Positions 40,058 through 53,898 of a DNA stretch of 64,000 bases are shown one piece after another (positions within the stretch are counted from its first letter, which is position 1; each line of letters begins with the position of its first letter). Origin of the DNA: a phage; sequence record PV730302.1, one strand, 5' to 3'. Position numbers and translations under genes: made by a program. A model generated the notes under the pieces. The model was given only the letters and a program-made list of their open reading frames with translations, was not told where the DNA came from and searched no databases.

Positions 40058-40357
40058 TTAGAAAGAACCAGAACCTCTAATTGTGTTCTGGCGACCTTTA
40101 TTTTCTAATTCATAGTCGTCGATTTCGTAGGCTTGTGCTACACCAAAAGCCTTTTTAACTTTAGCTAAAGAGCCTTTAGACGTAACAATATTAAAAGTAT
40201 TACCTTTGGTAAAATCAACCAAATCCACTTGTACACCCTGTTTACCGAGGCTTGCTACAATAGCATCAACATATTCCTGGTCTAAATTGCCTTGAACTCC
40301 AATTTGAAATACTTTAGGAGCTTTGGCTTCTGTAATAAATTCTTGGTAAGTTTTCAT
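40058..40357 (-). CDS. internal-protein-like capsid cargo (CTS-tagged, 99 aa)
   Basis: N-terminus MKTYQEFITE matches the T4 internal-protein capsid targeting sequence; body unrelated to the other copies. Confidence 0.65.
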   Translation of the reverse strand: MKTYQEFITEAKAPKVFQIGVQGNLDQEYVDAIVASLGKQGVQVDLVDFTKGNTFNIVTSKGSLAKVKKAFGVAQAYEIDDYELENKGRQNTIRGSGSF

Positions 40358-40399
40358 ATTATTCCTTAAGTTGGTAGAAGTATTCTATCACGGATTTAA

Positions 40400-40816
40400 T
40401 TAAGCGTAAATCGCCTTACCATAATGTTTGTACCAGGTAGGGCGTTGTGCAATTTTTTCGTCCAAACGGGCTTGTGAAATGGCGATAGAAGCTTCGTGAG
40501 GAACATAATCATCACGGAATTCCTGAGGAATGTCACTAATGTCCTGGACAGTAGTATCCTTGATATTAAAACCACGTTTTAAACATTCGGCTATAAGCTC
40601 AATTTGTCGCTTACGTAAAAATTCAAGCTTATCGTAAAAGAATGTAACATGGCCTGTGCCAAGGATAAAAGTAGGACTGATTTTGAAATCACGGACACGT
40701 TTACCATTAGCAACATGCTTACGAACTGCACCGAAAACACGTGGTAATTCACGATATTCAGCCATTAAGTGTTGGTCAGCCAATTCAGATACTAAGGTAA
40801 GGTTGATACGAGTCAT
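40400..40816 (-). CDS. denV: endonuclease V (pyrimidine-dimer DNA glycosylase) DenV
   Basis: 138 aa; only a handful of differences from recalled T4 endonuclease V. Confidence 0.95.
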
Positions 40817-40872
40817 TTTTAATCTCCTGTAGTTGATAGGTCTATAGTATCATGACTACAGGAGATGTAAAC
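40817..40872 (-). promoter_or_regulatory. early promoter with SD-complementary spacer arm (denV)
   Basis: GTTTAC-ATCTCCTGTAGTCATGA-TACTAT-AGACCTATCAACTACAGGAGATTAAAAATG; 11-nt perfect inverted repeat TCTCCTGTAGT / ACTACAGGAGA. Confidence 0.6.
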
Positions 40873-40896
40873 AACTTTTATCAAGTATCGGCTTTA

Positions 40897-41493
40897 TTAA
40901 TTACCACGGGCTGCATTAGCAACGGCGTAAGCGTACTGAATATTAGCGTCTTTAAACGTACCTTTAGAGGTATCTATTTCTGCCTTAAAGCCGCCTTTAG
41001 CCATAACATCGGCAAATTCTTTACGGAAAGTCATTGCATCAAGACCTTTCCATGTTGATTTGTGCTTGGCAAATTCAAGACCAGCGAAGTTGACAGCCTT
41101 AGCCAATTTATTATCAATAGTCCATTTACCTGCTTTAGGTACAAACACCGGGCCTTTCTGTTTAGAGAACAGTTTTAAATTCCAGCGACGAAGGTCACCG
41201 TCAGCTTTAACAAAAGCTGCGTCCAAGTTACTAGCAACAACATCTTGGATATGGGCAAATTTAAGTCCATCAGCTTCAATATTTAGGTCGTTACGCCAGC
41301 GAAGTCCTTCCCAGGCGAAAGCTTTAAAGTCGGAAGCTTTTGTAGCCAAGTACCGTTCAATAGGAGCTGTTTTAGCGTCAAAACCGTTTCCTGGGTTGTC
41401 AACGCCGTTTCCTTTGTAAGTCCACTCATCTTTATTAATGCCTTGGACCTTTCCTACAGAAGCTTCGGCGATAAATTCTTTATACGTTTTCAT
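40897..41493 (-). CDS. internal-protein-like capsid cargo (CTS-tagged, 198 aa)
   Basis: N-terminus MKTYKEFIAE; Lys/Ala-rich body. Confidence 0.65.
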   Translation of the reverse strand: MKTYKEFIAEASVGKVQGINKDEWTYKGNGVDNPGNGFDAKTAPIERYLATKASDFKAFAWEGLRWRNDLNIEADGLKFAHIQDVVASNLDAAFVKADGDLRRWNLKLFSKQKGPVFVPKAGKWTIDNKLAKAVNFAGLEFAKHKSTWKGLDAMTFRKEFADVMAKGGFKAEIDTSKGTFKDANIQYAYAVANAARGN

Positions 41494-41575
41494 ACGGGTT
41501 CCTTAAAGGTAAATATTTTAATTGGTCTGTTCAAGTAACTGTAGATATACTATCACAATTCTAGGAGATGTAAAC
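41494..41575 (-). promoter_or_regulatory. early promoter (GTTTAC-17-TAGTAT)
   Basis: Minus-strand GTTTACATCTCCTAGAATTGTGATAGTAT. Confidence 0.5.
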
Positions 41576-41974
41576 TTATTTGTAGGTCTTCATCCAATTC
41601 TTGAACAAAGCCGCGACGTCTTTCTCTTTAACGTTCAGTTTAATGTCCAACATTTTACCACCGGCAGCACGTGTCTGACGAATCTTAGCAGTACCGGTTT
41701 CGCCATTCCACTCAACATAATACTGCCCAGTGTTCATTGCAATACCATCGCCGTAGTCTTCATTTTTAGAAGTTGTGAAGGCCAGCTTCATAGTCTTAGA
41801 TACACGAGCCTGCATGCCAGTCTGAAGGGCATTACGAACGCGAATAACTTGAGGAGTGGCCTGGGTCAGGTTCTCATTCAGTTCTTCAGTGAACTCTTCA
41901 GATTCAAACATCGCCAAAAGTTCTTTAGATGCAGGAATTACATTCTCTGCGATAAATTCATTATAAGTTTTCAT
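41576..41974 (-). CDS. internal-protein-like capsid cargo (CTS-tagged, 132 aa)
   Basis: N-terminus [10 protein letters not shown]. Confidence 0.65.
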
Positions 41975-46545: not shown

Positions 46546-46773
46546 TTATTTTCCTAACGAAACACGAGTAGGTTTTTTACCAAAATAGTCTTCGTAAGAA
46601 CCATCTAAACGGCCTGCTTTAGACCGACAATACGAATCATACTTTTTGTAATAAGTCATCTCGGTATTATAACGTGGGTGTCTATCAGCCATAATAATAC
46701 TTAACGGCCAACCTTTGGCATAATCGCGAAGACCATTTATTTTACGAATGTATCTTTTCTTTAATTTTAGCAT
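46546..46773 (-). CDS. hypothetical basic protein (75 aa)
   Basis: ORF. Confidence 0.4.
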   Translation of the reverse strand: MLKLKKRYIRKINGLRDYAKGWPLSIIMADRHPRYNTEMTYYKKYDSYCRSKAGRLDGSYEDYFGKKPTRVSLGK

Positions 46774-46991
46774 GAGCTCGGATACCAGATTTTACCATCG
46801 GCCTGAGCAACGAAGGTGCGACCAGCTTCTTCACCATAACAAGAGCTATTCAGCCAATCTTCGAGACGAACTTCACCGTCATAATCATCGAGCTCAACAC
46901 CGAAATCCTGGGCAGAAGCCATATCTTTTACTTTCTTATACAGTGCAGCCAGTTCAAGAGCAGCTTTTTCTAATTCATTAATATCAGACAT
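46767..46991 (-). CDS. tandem-paralog family member 4 (74 aa, C-terminal ...WYPSSC)
   Basis: Start at ATG 46991 with AAGGAAAT SD; shares acidic helical N-terminus, Y-x-P block and terminal SS-x-C with the three upstream paralogs. Confidence 0.5.
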   Translation of the reverse strand: MSDINELEKAALELAALYKKVKDMASAQDFGVELDDYDGEVRLEDWLNSSCYGEEAGRTFVAQADGKIWYPSSC

Positions 46992-47001
46992 TTTTATTTC
47001 C

Positions 47002-47214
47002 TTAGCAAGACATAGAAGAAGTAAACCAGAAACCATCACCATCAGGAATGCCGTAATCATCACGGACCCATTCATAATCATCATATTCCGGGTTCTTTGG
47101 AGAAATGTATTGTCCACGACCAGAAACATGGAACTCTTCACCCGTTTCGTCAGCCACAGACTGGCCTTTACGTACTAATTCACGGATTTGGTTTTCAATT
47201 TCATCAATAGTCAT
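47002..47214 (-). CDS. tandem-paralog family member 3 (70 aa, C-terminal ...TSSMSC)
   Basis: Same architecture as neighbours. Confidence 0.5.
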   Translation of the reverse strand: MTIDEIENQIRELVRKGQSVADETGEEFHVSGRGQYISPKNPEYDDYEWVRDDYGIPDGDGFWFTSSMSC

Positions 47215-47223
47215 TTTATTTCC

Positions 47224-47505
47224 TTAACATTCAGAAGAAGAGGACACCCAACCACCATTTTCTAGGCTGGTAGTGTAATCATGTTGGTTTACAATAGCGT
47301 ACTGAGCTTCACCGTATTCTTCCCAGTGGGCAAGGTCGGCTTTCAAGGCGCCAGGAGAATAATAGTCACCGCCCATACCGCGAGCAGGGTATATATTAAA
47401 ATGAGTCTCATATTTGTTTGCAATTTCCTCGGCACGACGAATAGCTTTATGGATATCATTTACTGCTTCAGCCAATTCTTTATTTTTATGGTAATCATTC
47501 ATCAT
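47224..47505 (-). CDS. tandem-paralog family member 2 (93 aa, C-terminal ...WVSSSSEC)
   Basis: Same architecture as neighbours. Confidence 0.5.
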   Translation of the reverse strand: MMNDYHKNKELAEAVNDIHKAIRRAEEIANKYETHFNIYPARGMGGDYYSPGALKADLAHWEEYGEAQYAIVNQHDYTTSLENGGWVSSSSEC

Positions 47506-47514
47506 AGCGTTTCC

Positions 47515-47805
47515 TTAGCACATTGCCGAAGAGGAGATCCAAGCACCAACTGTAACGACGCCATTTTCAACTTCACCACCGTTGTTTTCAATTTCATCTT
47601 TAAACCACTGGGAGCATTCATAACCGACAGGATAATATGTACGGCCTGAACCATAATCACCGGTACCGAATTGGATACCATACTTATCGGCAATAGCTTC
47701 ACATTCATGTTCGATGGTATTCACTTTATTCAGAAGAGCATAGATAGCCTTTTCTGCAGATTTCTCGTCATTGTGTTCCGGGATTTCAATTTCAATTTTA
47801 TTCAT
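47515..47805 (-). CDS. tandem-paralog family member 1 (96 aa, C-terminal ...WISSSAMC)
   Basis: Same architecture as neighbours; ATG overlaps the upstream stop. Confidence 0.5.
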   Translation of the reverse strand: MNKIEIEIPEHNDEKSAEKAIYALLNKVNTIEHECEAIADKYGIQFGTGDYGSGRTYYPVGYECSQWFKDEIENNGGEVENGVVTVGAWISSSAMC

Positions 47806-50209: not shown

Positions 50210-50240
50210 ACAAAAAAGGCCCAACCTTTCGGAAGGGCCT
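50210..50240 (-). terminator. rho-independent terminator
   Basis: GGCCCTTCC-GAAA-GGTTGGGCC followed by T6 on the minus strand. Confidence 0.6.
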
Positions 50241-50244
50241 AGAA

Positions 50245-50799
50245 TCAGTTCTTGTAGAACCGGAACGGGTTTACATGGAAGGCTAACATGGCCTTAGGGA
50301 TTTTACGAGACAAAAGGCTCTTAAGCTTCCAACCACAGTACACGCGAAGGTAAAAGGTAATCCCACCAACCTTAAGATATGGAACTGAAGCAAATACACC
50401 CCAGGCGTCGTCATTCCACATCCATAACCACCCGTGATGAGCTTTATCAGGAGAACCGGATTCAACGTCAGGATTACCACGATAATGGAATTCTGAGCTA
50501 CAATCACGACCGAGTTTATGGTAAGCAAAGTTATAAGCTTTATTTCGCCATAGCCAAGCTACTCTCTGGAGATAAACACCACCTGGCATTTTCCTGATTT
50601 TAGCCCAACGTTTAATGTGACCTTTGTCACCGTCAATTGGATTATCGTATGTCATCATCCAATCAAAGCCATAAGGCAATTTACCGGTCTTTTTATTGTG
50701 GAAAGGAACTACAAAAGGCGCAAGGATAACAGCCAGAACCATAGAGATAAAATCCAGTGGAACCAACAGAACCCAACTCAAATATTTTAAAAGTTTCAT
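50245..50799 (-). CDS. membrane-anchored protein (184 aa)
   Basis: Start at first ATG 50799; N-terminal TM helices. Confidence 0.5.
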   Translation of the reverse strand: MKLLKYLSWVLLVPLDFISMVLAVILAPFVVPFHNKKTGKLPYGFDWMMTYDNPIDGDKGHIKRWAKIRKMPGGVYLQRVAWLWRNKAYNFAYHKLGRDCSSEFHYRGNPDVESGSPDKAHHGWLWMWNDDAWGVFASVPYLKVGGITFYLRVYCGWKLKSLLSRKIPKAMLAFHVNPFRFYKN

Positions 50800-50816
50800 A
50801 TATTTCTCTAATTTAA

Positions 50817-50842
50817 CCAAAAAAGCCCCAGATGGGGCTTTC
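50817..50842 (-). terminator. rho-independent terminator
   Basis: AAGCCCC-ATCT-GGGGCTT followed by T6 on the minus strand, just after the stop at 50844. Confidence 0.6.
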
Positions 50843-50843
50843 G

Positions 50844-51308
50844 TTATTTGATTTGTTTAGCAGACCAGATACGGTCTTTGATGATTTTCTGAATATCTTC
50901 AACATACTCTAAGTCGTGAGCATGCGGATTATCTTTGAAGCTATGTGCTCGTGCTAGTTTCTGGCCTTCTGTTTTGATTACTAAAAGCTCTTTAAGAATT
51001 GCTTCATACTTAGAAATAATTCCTTTGGCGATATTTTTTTCTTGAGCGGCTTTAGGGTCTGCTTTTGTAGCAGGTGCTTTACCTGTAGCTTTCTGGAACA
51101 ATTCACCTGATGCAGCTAGGCTTTTAAAAACTCGGCTAACAGTATTAGCATTAGTAAAACCTTCGGCTTTAAAATCTCTAATAAAACGGAAACGTTCTTC
51201 ATCAGAGGCGTCTTTGTAAGAATATTTACCTGCTTGAATTGCTGCAATCGCAGCGGCTTTTACATCTGAACTAGATTGTTCAGTCAAAAATTCATTGTAA
51301 GTTTTCAT
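50844..51308 (-). CDS. internal-protein-like capsid cargo (CTS-tagged, 154 aa)
   Basis: N-terminus MKTYNEFLTE; Lys/Ala-rich body. Confidence 0.6.
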   Translation of the reverse strand: MKTYNEFLTEQSSSDVKAAAIAAIQAGKYSYKDASDEERFRFIRDFKAEGFTNANTVSRVFKSLAASGELFQKATGKAPATKADPKAAQEKNIAKGIISKYEAILKELLVIKTEGQKLARAHSFKDNPHAHDLEYVEDIQKIIKDRIWSAKQIK

Positions 51309-51348
51309 TATTATTTCCTAAGTTAATTAACTTATCTATTTATTATGC

Positions 51349-51378
51349 CAAAAAGCCCCAACCTTTCGGAAGGGGCTA
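51349..51378 (-). terminator. rho-independent terminator downstream of the tRNA/sRNA region
   Basis: AGCCCCTTCC-GAAA-GGTTGGGGCT followed by T5 on the minus strand. Confidence 0.55.
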
Positions 51379-51420: not shown

Positions 51421-51757
51421 TGTTTGTACGAAACGCCGGGATTCGAACCCGGTTATTAAGTAGTTGACGCTACTCAATATTTTTAAAAGGCCATATCTCG
51501 ACCATATCCGAACGTTCCGTCAAAAACGCTACTCGGCTTACGGCAAAGATATTTCCTCGAATCGATAATTCGGTGCGCCGTTTCTGCTGTGATGTAAGGG
51601 GACGTTAACAGATCGTAAAGATTTGTTAATGTCAGTCCTTATTCAGGGAACATCAGTCCGACGACTTACCGGTAGCGACCCGGTTTCTTGTTTGGTGCGC
51701 CGGTGAATGCTGGTAATCAGTCTTCATACGACGGCTTGACTATATAATAGTCTTCAT
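51421..51757 (-). ncRNA. putative small stable RNA region (tRNA-like 3' element; possible species-1/species-2-type RNAs)
   Basis: ORF-free 340 bp next to the tRNAs; perfect T-arm CCGGG-TTCGAAT-CCCGG at 51436-51452 without a foldable canonical cloverleaf; CGGCGCACC repeated about 115 nt apart; 6-bp hairpin GACTAT-TAT-ATAGTC just 3' of tRNA-Arg. Confidence 0.3.
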
Positions 51758-51758
51758 T

Positions 51759-51833
51759 TGGTATCCCGCCCTGGGATCGAACCAGGACCGCAAACTTAGA
51801 AGGATCGTATGCTATCCATTACACCAGCGGGAC
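51759..51833 (-). tRNA. tRNA-Arg (anticodon TCT), CCA encoded
   Basis: Manual cloverleaf: acceptor GTCCCGC/GCGGGAT, D-arm GTGT-AATGGATA-GCAT, anticodon loop CTTCTAA, T-arm CCTGG-TTCGATC-CCAGG. Confidence 0.8.
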
Positions 51834-51838
51834 ATAGT

Positions 51839-51915
51839 TGGTGACCCGGACCAGATTTGAACTGGTAACCTTTCCCTTATGAGGGGACTGCTTCTAACCA
51901 TTGAGCTACAGGGCC
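51839..51915 (-). tRNA. tRNA with anticodon CAT (Ile2/Met type), CCA encoded
   Basis: Manual cloverleaf: acceptor GGCCCTG/CCGGGTC (one mismatch), anticodon loop CTCATAA, T-arm ACCAG-TTCAAAT-CTGGT; three stem mismatches in total. Confidence 0.65.
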
Positions 51916-52600: not shown

Positions 52601-53002
52601 TTAACCCTCGTCTACAATAGTATGGGTATTAGCATTAACAATCTGCCACCAGTCAAAACGATCGGAGCCGTAAAGAAACTTATTCTCGTTTTCTTTAACA
52701 ATTTCACGTAGTTCATCTTCAGTGGCAGCTTTAGCGATTAAATCGGTATAGCCACCACGTGGATAGTAGTTATCACCCGCGAACAGAAGGAAATTTACTT
52801 TACCAGAAGGAACATATGCTTCCTTAGGATACTTGTTTCCTGCTTGGTCTACCACTTCAATATAACGGTAAGGAATATCGGTACTTTCAACCCATTGCCA
52901 AGCTGCAGCAGGGGATTCAAAAGCATCTACACCTAAACGGTTATCTTCATCTTTAGACGGATTATTTTCATAATCCGCATATGCATAATATTCAACGTTC
53001 AT
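52601..53002 (-). CDS. hypothetical protein (133 aa)
   Basis: ORF. Confidence 0.5.
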   Translation of the reverse strand: MNVEYYAYADYENNPSKDEDNRLGVDAFESPAAAWQWVESTDIPYRYIEVVDQAGNKYPKEAYVPSGKVNFLLFAGDNYYPRGGYTDLIAKAATEDELREIVKENENKFLYGSDRFDWWQIVNANTHTIVDEG

Positions 53003-53256: not shown

Positions 53257-53565
53257 CTATTTTATTCCGCGTGATGCAATCGTATTCTGCCGTTTAACGC
53301 CAGTTTGTTTAAAGTTATGATTGTCGAGTTGATCGGTACGAGCAACTCCGAATGATGATTTAATCTTAGCTTTAGATCCTTTAGTTATAGAAATAAACAT
53401 CTCGGGAGCCCCTTTCTTAAAGTCCGAAGCAATTACTTCAACACCGTTCTTAGCAAGTGACCTCAGAATTGCTTCCACATACTCATCATCAAGACCCGCT
53501 TGAGTATGAATAACGAATGTCTTTGGTGCAGCCGCTTCATTGATAAATTCTTTATAGGTTTTCAT
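53257..53565 (-). CDS. internal-protein-like capsid cargo (CTS-tagged, 102 aa)
   Basis: N-terminus MKTYKEFINE; ipI-locus position next to 57B. Confidence 0.6.
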   Translation of the reverse strand: MKTYKEFINEAAAPKTFVIHTQAGLDDEYVEAILRSLAKNGVEVIASDFKKGAPEMFISITKGSKAKIKSSFGVARTDQLDNHNFKQTGVKRQNTIASRGIK

Positions 53566-53625
53566 TTTATGTTCCTAATTAATTTTGATGAGATAATAGT
53601 ACCACAACCCTATTTAAAAGTAAAC
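53566..53625 (-). promoter_or_regulatory. early promoter (GTTTAC-18-TACTAT)
   Basis: Minus-strand GTTTACTTTTAAATAGGGTTGTGGTACTAT. Confidence 0.55.
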
Positions 53626-53898
53626 TCATTTTAAATAAATTGCATACTTTTTATAACCGGCCGTTTCGTGACGCAGCCCTTTTTCATTAGCAAAACGTTC
53701 AATATTGTTAATTTGATTCTGGTCGAGTTCTGAAGTATCAAATACAAAAAAGTTTCGCTTATTGCCTAAAGTTACGTGATTAGTCAAATCGATGTTATAG
53801 AGATGATTTATATCATCAATCATAGTCTTAACAGATTTGTTAATTTTTACTTCCTCATTAAGAATAGATTCAGCGATAAATTCTTGATAAGTTTTCAT
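53626..53898 (-). CDS. internal-protein-like capsid cargo (CTS-tagged, 90 aa)
   Basis: N-terminus MKTYQEFIAE identical to the T4 CTS. Confidence 0.6.
   Translation of the reverse strand: MKTYQEFIAESILNEEVKINKSVKTMIDDINHLYNIDLTNHVTLGNKRNFFVFDTSELDQNQINNIERFANEKGLRHETAGYKKYAIYLK

Follow-up and report, generated by a model that had tools for sequence, protein, structure and literature searches.

What does a small gene standing alone between two terminator-like hairpins contribute to a T-even phage, and what kind of unit is it part of? This question is raised by positions 50844–51308 (minus strand) of sequence record PV730302.1, a 64,000-nucleotide (nt) stretch of phage DNA that is referred to here, at its full length, as the window. 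An open reading frame (ORF) at this locus opens with the ten residues MKTYNEFLTE, which have the form of a capsid targeting sequence (CTS), the N-terminal tag by which internal proteins of phage T4 are packaged into the head; it is called the CTS gene below. Its likely product is a member of the T-even internal protein (Ip) class that had no name before, and the gene itself would belong to a small cassette for late expression, beside the cluster of tRNA and stable RNA genes. What would be new is thus an unannotated member of the Ip class at a third, previously unlisted locus, in a late cassette bounded by repeats of the terminator that follows the stable RNA gene rnaC.

The ORF is a real coding gene under purifying selection, since approximately 510 records encode homologues, PHROG 2280 matches its product (E 1e-53, "unknown function"), and the ratio of nonsynonymous to synonymous substitution rates (dN/dS) is 0.08–0.24 against five homologues. 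More precisely, 512 phage records carry the gene, as compared with 808 that carry the rnaC region. The ORF starts with ATG and encodes 154 amino acids. Following removal of the first ten residues, the mature body (50844–51278 on the minus strand, including the stop codon) would comprise 144 amino acids, with a mass of 16.0 kDa, an isoelectric point (pI) of 9.5, a net charge of +7, 20 lysines and 23 alanines, so that the Lys/Ala-rich body of 144 residues described in the first-pass annotation is borne out. The protein is laid out as a conserved N-terminal part of three helices (residues 13–67), a Lys/Ala/Pro-rich linker (~72–92) and a C-terminal helical hairpin (85–151). Across the family, the conserved N-terminal part reads GKYSYKD.SDE.RF.F.RD.KAEGF, while alignment reveals that the C-terminal helical part has been swapped in the Klebsiella and Yersinia members. 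An AlphaFold model is all-helical, with a mean predicted local distance difference test (pLDDT) score of 73 and values of 81–90 over residues 11–70.

The family has gone largely without a name. All of the 60-odd database names examined were "hypothetical protein", as was the label in each record looked at; members of PHROG 2280 include RB32ORF132c, fD1 g140 and bas42_0248, and a literature search for RB32ORF132c found no paper. An exhaustive profile search of 1.8 billion representatives recovered just 10 clusters at 50% identity, and its lone non-phage match (E 2e-4), to the PPR-like repeat protein P0016, was set aside as compositional or helical-repeat similarity. Pfam matches to LAMB1 and SelB_WH1 were likewise dismissed as sub-threshold noise. 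An NCBIfam search gave no match, the best hit of a sequence-profile search of the PDB had an E of 0.7 and was of no use, Foldseek searches of the PDB returned nothing but helical bundles of a generic kind, ferritins among them (E > 0.5), and those of BFVD returned only uncharacterised members of the family itself.

The first ten residues of T4 IPIII suffice for packaging, even of foreign proteins; within this tag, MKTYQEFIAE, targeting depends on residues 4 and 7 and processing on residues 8 and 10, and the prohead protease (gp21) cleaves after L/I-X-E, with Glu, not Asp, at position 10 (PMC9026906). In the CTS gene, the tag occupies codons 1–10 (51279–51308, minus strand), where Tyr4 and Phe7 are the same as in IPIII, and Leu8-Thr9-Glu10, followed by Gln11, supplies the L/I-X-E motif with a predicted prohead-protease cut after Glu10. 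Close variants of the protein begin MKSYAQFLNE-AVLNE, in which the cut motif is duplicated, and the N-termini of remote relatives are also CTS-like (MLKFNEFLAE, MLEYSEFLKE and MKFKEFLIE). As the first-pass annotation had counted, the gene is one of six tagged genes: a pattern scan of the window for ORFs beginning MK[ST]Y.EF yields exactly six, at 40058, 40897, 41576, 50844, 53257 and 53626, all on the minus strand. Two of the others, the 102-amino-acid protein at the ipI locus (53257–53565) and the 99-amino-acid protein at the ipII position (40058–40357), appear by eye to be paralogues of one another, placed at the two Ip loci. The head maturation protease, portal and scaffold proteins are encoded outside the region covered by the window and are found in Escherichia phage UGJNEcP3, which has a 100%-identical CTS protein and DNA of 99.4% identity.

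Evidence from virions is available for a relative. Yersinia phage fD1, a Tequatrovirus, encodes a 75%-identical homologue, g140, and LC-MS/MS (liquid chromatography–tandem mass spectrometry) of ultracentrifuge-purified fD1 virions lists this product as "PPAP", the higher-confidence class, and marks it as being without a similar protein in T4 (Skurnik et al. 2021, PMC8309999 Table S3). The published description of phages fPS-2, fPS-65 as well as fPS-90 comes without a virion proteome. An exact match at the four residues critical in IPIII, supported by the presence of g140 in fD1 virions, suggests that MKTYNEFLTE would direct the protein to the prohead scaffolding core and that the prohead protease would then cut after Glu10. 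By analogy, the 16-kDa basic helical product would remain with the packaged DNA and be injected with it.

The two hairpins that had been noted on either side of the gene are indeed there, and each has the form of an intrinsic terminator, namely a GC-rich hairpin followed by a U-tract on the transcribed strand. They were recovered with our own minus-strand scan, given that the built-in terminator scan was uninformative for this strand, missing the upstream hairpin and giving the downstream one on the plus strand only. The upstream terminator, T1 (51350–51377, minus strand), consists of a hairpin, AGCCCCUUCC-GAAA-GGUUGGGGCU, at 51354–51377 and a U5 tract at 51350–51354. Its stem, AGCCCC-UU-CC-GAAA-GG-UU-GGGGCU, spans ten positions with a 2x2 U-U internal loop; the hairpin alone folds at ~-15.5 kcal/mol, and in local context its z is ~-2 (8 of 200 shuffles were as good). 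The downstream terminator, T2 (50819–50841, minus strand), begins 2 nt past the stop codon and is formed by AAAGCCCC-AUCU-GGGGCUUU at 50822–50841, with a U-run to 50819. Its 8-bp stem has five G-C pairs and is followed by U6, and the fold (-15.4 kcal/mol, z = -3.5) was matched in stability by none of 200 shuffles. T2 is kept in WG01, QL01, vB_EcoM_005, IME341 and fDHCT2 with changes in the loop only. Among the eight strongest sites of this kind that the scan found in the 64 kb (hairpin plus T-tract, <= -12 kcal/mol), three fall within 1.2 kb around the CTS gene, the third being 50217–50240, after the neighbouring DUF7338 gene. Rfam matches to Phe_leader and sroH at 50816–50936 were rejected, as they are far under the gathering score and reflect the terminator hairpin only.

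T1, while real, is evidently not a device of the CTS gene. It follows the rnaC homologue after a 49-nt trailer, and rnaC of T4 is followed by the same hairpin, AGCCCCGACC-GAAA-GGUUGGGGCU-UUUUU, with the same flanks, in a phage where the CTS gene is absent. Since T4 has the hairpin behind rnaC and lacks the gene, sequence comparison identifies T1 as the conserved terminator of the tRNA-rnaD-rnaC transcription unit rather than an insulator made for the CTS gene, contrary to the implication of the first-pass annotation. T1 is conserved in T4, RB51 and 13 other loci, and roughly 800 records carry the T1/rnaC region. In 11 distinct copies, 93% of cells are paired, with one compensatory change from C-G to G-C and several wobble changes.

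The independence of the CTS gene would instead come from a late-promoter-like octamer directly past T1. This octamer, AATAAATA (51337–51344, minus strand), starts 5 nt past the U-tract, ends 28 nt before the ATG, and agrees at seven of eight positions with the T4 gp55 late promoter, TATAAATA. In relatives, the exact TATAAATA occurs within 1–3 nt of the T1 U-tract (in RB51, WG01, QL01, vB_EcoM_005, four further IMG/VR loci, fD1 and Klebsiella phage M198; loci with the exact octamer at this position include L009–L013) and ends 28–44 nt before the ATG. A 3-nt expansion in the window, IME341 and fDHCT2 gives CATAATAAATAG, so that the octamer in register is AATAAATA; Mosigvirus relatives have one or two extra ATA units and keep the same octamer, and that of Klebsiella phage kv_tblp5 is CATAAATA. 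The first position (-13) of late promoters in T4-like phages has been described as poorly conserved, "with either A or T" (Nolan et al., PMC1524935). Between the octamer and the gene, the 5′ leader (51316–51333, minus strand) contains an AT-rich palindrome, AAGUUAAUUAACUU (51320–51333), and a Shine-Dalgarno sequence, AGGA (51316–51319), 7 nt before the ATG. The palindrome is perfect (AAGTTAATTAACTT) and lies where the late mRNA is predicted to begin, or close to that point; two of the compared loci (L009 and L010) keep it in part, and the RB51 type lacks it.

Other kinds of promoter were also sought. No early promoter of the GTTTAC or TTGACA type was found upstream of the CTS gene, and a sigma-70-like match at 51338–51310 was rejected, as its -10 hexamer ends one base before the ATG and would exclude a ribosome-binding site. 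Four of the five other CTS genes in the window stand behind early promoters (GTTTAC/ATTTAC-N17-18-TAnnAT) and the fifth directly follows the lysozyme gene; no exact TATAAATA occurs near these five genes (40058–41974 and 53257–53898). The gene at 50844–51308 is thus the only tagged gene of the window with late-only signals, which fits a protein that is needed at prohead assembly.

On its 3′ side, the gene is probably less well insulated than the first-pass annotation had proposed. Only 19 nt separate the U-tract of T2 from the ATG of the next gene, which encodes a membrane protein of 184 amino acids (50245–50799, minus strand, ATG at 50799; Pfam DUF7338, E 7e-63; PHROG 2143). A by-eye search of the 3′ end of the CTS gene found no convincing promoter of the MotA or late type for DUF7338. 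Since its ATG is so close and no promoter is recognisable, the DUF7338 gene seems to depend on read-through at T2. The idea of an insulated single-gene unit therefore stands insofar as two hairpins bracket the gene, and gives way at the 3′ end, where insulation is probably incomplete. In fDHCT2 and IME341 the DUF7338 gene is cut down to five codons (MKLLK*), with T2 remaining together with T3, a T1-like terminator that lies beyond it. In the window, 27 of the 29 positions of T3 (50212–50240, minus strand) are the same as in T1, and the remaining two make up a compensatory change from C-G to G-C. T3 ends in U6, and behind it comes the early promoter of the e.8 homologue (GTTTAC ... TACTAT).

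Taken together, these features suggest how the unit would operate. Transcripts of the tRNA-rnaD-rnaC unit would stop at T1, whose hairpin, conservation and presence in T4 are plain. Late in infection, RNA polymerase with gp55 would start at the octamer past T1, as suggested by the octamer itself and by the canonical TATAAATA at the same position in relatives, and would yield a short, monocistronic mRNA, ending for the most part at T2, with some read-through feeding the promoter-less DUF7338 gene. The tagged product would then enter the prohead, be cleaved, and leave with the DNA, perhaps to disarm a specific host defence acting on incoming modified DNA.

Several observations weigh against this reading of the gene as an internal protein on a late cassette. 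The list of fD1 virion proteins is unspecific, with 113 of 277 products flagged, including DenV, NudE and thymidine kinase (PMC8309999), and the detection of g140 is therefore supportive and not decisive. The cut at Glu10 is a prediction from the motif, and a second L-x-E site, Leu105-Lys-Glu107, which is invariant in the family, might be a further cleavage site. Similarity to Ip1–3 is limited to the tag, in sequence as well as in fold, and the alignment with the IPIII homologue stops after the tag. With respect to transcription, the octamer of the window is non-canonical and a putative promoter; read-through from the tRNA unit into the CTS gene is possible, given the 2x2 U-U internal loop of T1 and its z-score, which is modest; and expression of the DUF7338 gene, if it occurs, would mean that T2 does not stop transcription completely.

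As for function, the best clues come from other tagged proteins. Ip1, Ip2 and Ip3 of T4 have each been found to inhibit a distinct type IV restriction enzyme of the GmrSD type, with GmrSD variants proposed as the targets of every protein from "the two Ip loci" (Silas et al. 2025, PMC12373910), while the tagged protein Bas37_0260 inhibits McrBC (2025 HIDEN-SEQ preprint). The most likely role for the CTS protein is accordingly that of an injected inhibitor of some host defence, a tentative proposal that we hold at somewhat less than even confidence; as nothing beyond the tag resembles Ip1–3, it is an argument from analogy. The main competing view of its function, which we regard as fairly unlikely, is that the protein is packaged and has no specific host target, serving as a basic Lys/Ala-rich counter-ion or organiser of the condensed DNA in the head, or as an aid to core assembly. 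The mature body, with its 20 lysines, charge of +7 and pI of 9.5, comes near the IPIII homologue of the window (+8, pI 9.54), it contains the Lys/Ala/Pro-rich linker, no fold match suggests an inhibitor, and in T4 heads only the lysines of internal proteins contact DNA phosphates (PMC3012670). Nevertheless, the same view was taken of IPII and IPIII before each proved to be an inhibitor of a specific GmrSD enzyme (PMC12373910), and the presence/absence polymorphism and modular C-terminal swaps in the Klebsiella and Yersinia members better fit an accessory gene in an arms race. Sequence and structural model do not discriminate between an injected inhibitor and a general DNA-associated basic head protein.

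It is also conceivable, if unlikely, that the hairpins are inefficient in vivo, such that the gene is mainly expressed on longer transcripts running from the tRNA region into DUF7338 and e.8, and that the stem-loops are chiefly RNA-processing or 3′-stabilising elements and recombination linkers. The two U-U mismatches of T1 and its advantage of only ~2 standard deviations over shuffled sequences would be in keeping with this, as would the non-canonical octamer, the lack of a promoter for DUF7338 (which implies that T2 is read through to some degree) and the maturation of rnaC ~49 nt upstream of T1, which marks a processing zone. Against it stand the classical intrinsic-terminator form of both hairpins, a GC-rich stem with 5–6 U, the conservation of T1 across hundreds of genomes with a compensatory change, and the finding that stem-loops of comparable cassettes terminate transcription in reporter assays (PMC2839356). 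Moreover, a canonical TATAAATA right behind T1 in most relatives would make no sense unless transcription from upstream largely ended there. Finally, that the tag-like N-terminus is a mere relic or recombination footprint on an unpackaged, cytoplasmic, late protein is highly improbable: packaging and cleavage in the window phage are inferred, and clearly non-structural enzymes are also listed in the fD1 virion proteome, but all four functionally mapped tag residues are intact, purifying selection keeps the tag even in relatives at 23–43% identity, ten such residues package foreign proteins in T4 (PMC9026906), and the late-only regulatory signals match prohead assembly.

The reading of the gene as part of a discrete late cassette draws further weight from a comparison of occupied and empty sites. 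T4 has the empty site, T1-GGTAT/CTAAGCCTTTCCAG... (T1-GGTAT/CTAAGCC, with the slash marking the junction). RB51 has the occupied one, T1-GGTAT/AAATATAG...gene...TTAGCCCTAGCCGAAAGGTTGGGGCTTTTTGGTAT/CTAGGCCTTTCCAG..., its right end reading T1′-GGTAT/CTAGGCC. What RB51 has and T4 lacks is a 559-bp segment, with the terminator on either side of it as a 36-nt direct repeat, and the RB51 record itself is annotated as "flanked by 34 bp imperfect direct repeat". The late promoter of RB51 is completed across the left junction (GGTAT/AAATA). The same layout, in which the terminator downstream of the gene (T1′) is a near copy of T1, is found in fD1, where g140 lies in a T1-TATAAATA-gene-T1′ setting, and at four other loci (L009 and L011–L013). 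In the window, the T1-like copy (T3) lies one gene further on, past DUF7338, and the CTS gene's own T2 is a different hairpin. The unit thus appears to be a cassette of late promoter, gene and terminator flanked by terminator repeats, and recombination between these direct repeats would explain both its presence in ~60% of T-even records and its exact absence from T4.

The T1 and promoter variant of the window belongs to the IME341/Mosigvirus type (AGCCCC...; CATAATAAATA), whereas T2 and T3 belong with WG01/QL01 (AGGCCC...; the compared loci include L004, L006 and L010). Because the two ends match different phage types, the sequences point to a mosaic region with a recombination joint inside or beside the CTS gene. 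In T4-like phages of Klebsiella, the gene is found at the same place, just past the tRNA cluster, with quite different hairpins. Since the same place is occupied there in another setting, presence of the gene may be old, and T4 may have lost it by recombination between the repeats; these sequence comparisons do not decide between gain and loss. The arrangement, described in the first-pass annotation as unusual, is so locally, within the window; more widely, it is typical of the plastic regions of T4-type phages and is conserved in Tequatrovirus, Mosigvirus, Dhakavirus and Klebsiella T4-like phages.

How closely does this gene resemble known systems? With Ip1, Ip2, Ip3 and Bas37_0260 it shares the ten-residue N-terminal tag with Tyr4, Phe7 and the L/I-X-E cut site. 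It also resembles the Ip proteins in its small size, its non-essential accessory character, its polymorphism of presence and absence among T-even phages and, as in IPIII, a basic Lys/Ala-rich composition. It differs from them in location, since Ip genes lie next to 57B (the ipI locus) or next to e (the ipII/ipIII locus), and this gene lies between rnaC and e.8, outside of both. In the window, 1.95 kb separate it from the genes of the ipI locus, with the trna.2–4 homologues, the tRNAs and the stable RNAs in between. Location is descriptive of the class and not essential to it. A further difference is that its signals are late-only, as opposed to the early GTTTAC-type promoters of four of the five other tagged genes in the window.

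A second point of comparison is provided by the PeSL and PmSL elements of T4-type phages, in which terminator/promoter composites flank accessory ORFs, insertions and deletions fall within them, and mini-circles are excised (Arbiol 2010 and Comeau 2014; PMC2839356, PMC4122927). The CTS cassette is alike in that a GC-rich terminator stem-loop followed by a promoter is repeated around accessory ORFs, that indel junctions fall in the repeats, and that the unit is transcriptionally self-contained; the repeated composite is represented by T1 and T3 in the window and by T1 and T1′ in RB51, fD1 and loci L009–L013. It is unlike them in having a late octamer of the gp55 type in place of a sigma-70-like early promoter, with its -35 and -10 elements, or a MotA middle promoter, and in that the repeat consists of the terminator plus "GGTAT" (34–36 nt) and holds no full promoter.

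Two other comparisons are instructive. The tRNA/rnaD/rnaC region of T4 has an rnaC identical at 138 of 139 positions, the same terminator hairpin and trailer, and the same early promoter of e.8 further on. It is unlike the window in that its terminator runs straight into the e.8 intergenic sequence, where the window has 1.1 kb inserted (the CTS gene and DUF7338), and in that the window has an extra rnaD-like element of ~65 nt after tRNA-Arg. The morons of temperate phages are also autonomous units of promoter, ORF and terminator between two undisturbed conserved units; unlike them, the CTS gene belongs to a virulent phage, is apparently expressed late rather than from a prophage, and has a product that appears to be a virion component.

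A broader proposal can be built on these parallels, one that we consider doubtful as a whole. The PHROG 2280 family could represent a third, overlooked Ip locus of T-even phages whose product enters the host by injection and inhibits one specific defence (a variant of type IV restriction of the GmrSD/BrxU or McrBC type, or another system that acts early), and the terminator plus late promoter could be a late counterpart of PeSL that moves virion-delivered anti-defence genes by recombination in the rnaC terminator. Among phage proteins, the injected internal ones are the first that host immunity encounters, and each of the four CTS proteins whose function is known blocks one specific enzyme of type IV restriction. 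Members of the family are carried by roughly 500 T-even phages with sequenced genomes, among them therapy candidates and phages of the BASEL collection, at a site outside the two loci where Ip genes are sought, and recognition of the family adds a testable candidate to the Ip repertoire. Use of a conserved RNA terminator as the docking site for a late-expressed cassette would be a small addition to what is known of accessory-gene movement among T4-like phages. The general picture is left unchanged, and the annotation, useful as it is, should come as no surprise to a T4 specialist.

The phage itself can be placed with some precision. Escherichia phages 04086, UGJNEcP3 and UGJNEcP4 are 99.4–99.5% identical to the 1.8 kb around the CTS gene, and WG01 and QL01 are 96–97% identical over the same 1.8 kb. 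On these grounds, the window is from a Dhakavirus-like T-even phage, UGJNEcP3 and WG01 both being classed as Dhakavirus in the subfamily Tevenvirinae. Its minus strand follows the T4 gene order: gene 1 (dNMP kinase), 57A, 57B and two CTS-tagged genes at the ipI position (53626–53898 and 53257–53565, minus strand) are followed by homologues of trna.4, trna.3 and trna.2, tRNA-Met, tRNA-Arg, the stable RNAs, the CTS gene, the DUF7338 gene, e.8 and the remaining e.x block.

The gene does therefore stand beside the tRNA region, as the first-pass annotation had it, with tRNA-Met (51839–51915), tRNA-Arg (51759–51833) and the rnaD and rnaC homologues directly upstream, all on the minus strand. Both tRNAs pass Rfam and were the only candidates above the gathering score in an Rfam scan. 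The homologue of rnaD (species 2; ~51572–51688) lies downstream of both tRNAs and agrees with T4 rnaD at 102 of 116 positions, and that of rnaC (species 1; 51427–51565) was identified in a three-way alignment with T4 and RB51. The extra element of ~65 nt (51694–51758, minus strand), between tRNA-Arg and the rnaD homologue, is without counterpart in T4 and RB51. With an rnaD-like start (AAUGAAGA...) and an rnaD-like 3′ end (CAGCA..CGGCGCACC), it has the look of an rnaD paralogue that was truncated. The element seems to be confined to a few phages, as the first 64–71 nt of the query are missing from most of the ~800 related records.

A metagenomic protein of 94 amino acids (P0009), encoded on a 2898-bp contig, spans the same region in a different way. 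It is a fusion in which the N-terminal part of the Trna.3 homologue (...FLLFAGDNYYPRGGY.DLIAKAATEDELR...) is followed by the final ~31 residues of the CTS protein (NPHAHSLEYVEDIQKIIKDRIWSAKQIK), equivalent in the window to 52601–53002 joined to 50844–50940, and it implies a natural deletion that took out T1 and most of the CTS gene along with the tRNAs and stable RNAs. Finally, elsewhere in the window, four tandem small ORFs (70–124 amino acids; 46767–47805, minus strand) share the C-terminal motif W/F-x-(S/T)-S-S-x-x-C, their ends reading ...WYPSSC, ...FWFTSSMSC, ...GWVSSSSEC and ...AWISSSAMC, which points to local amplification of a family whose C-terminal cysteine is conserved.

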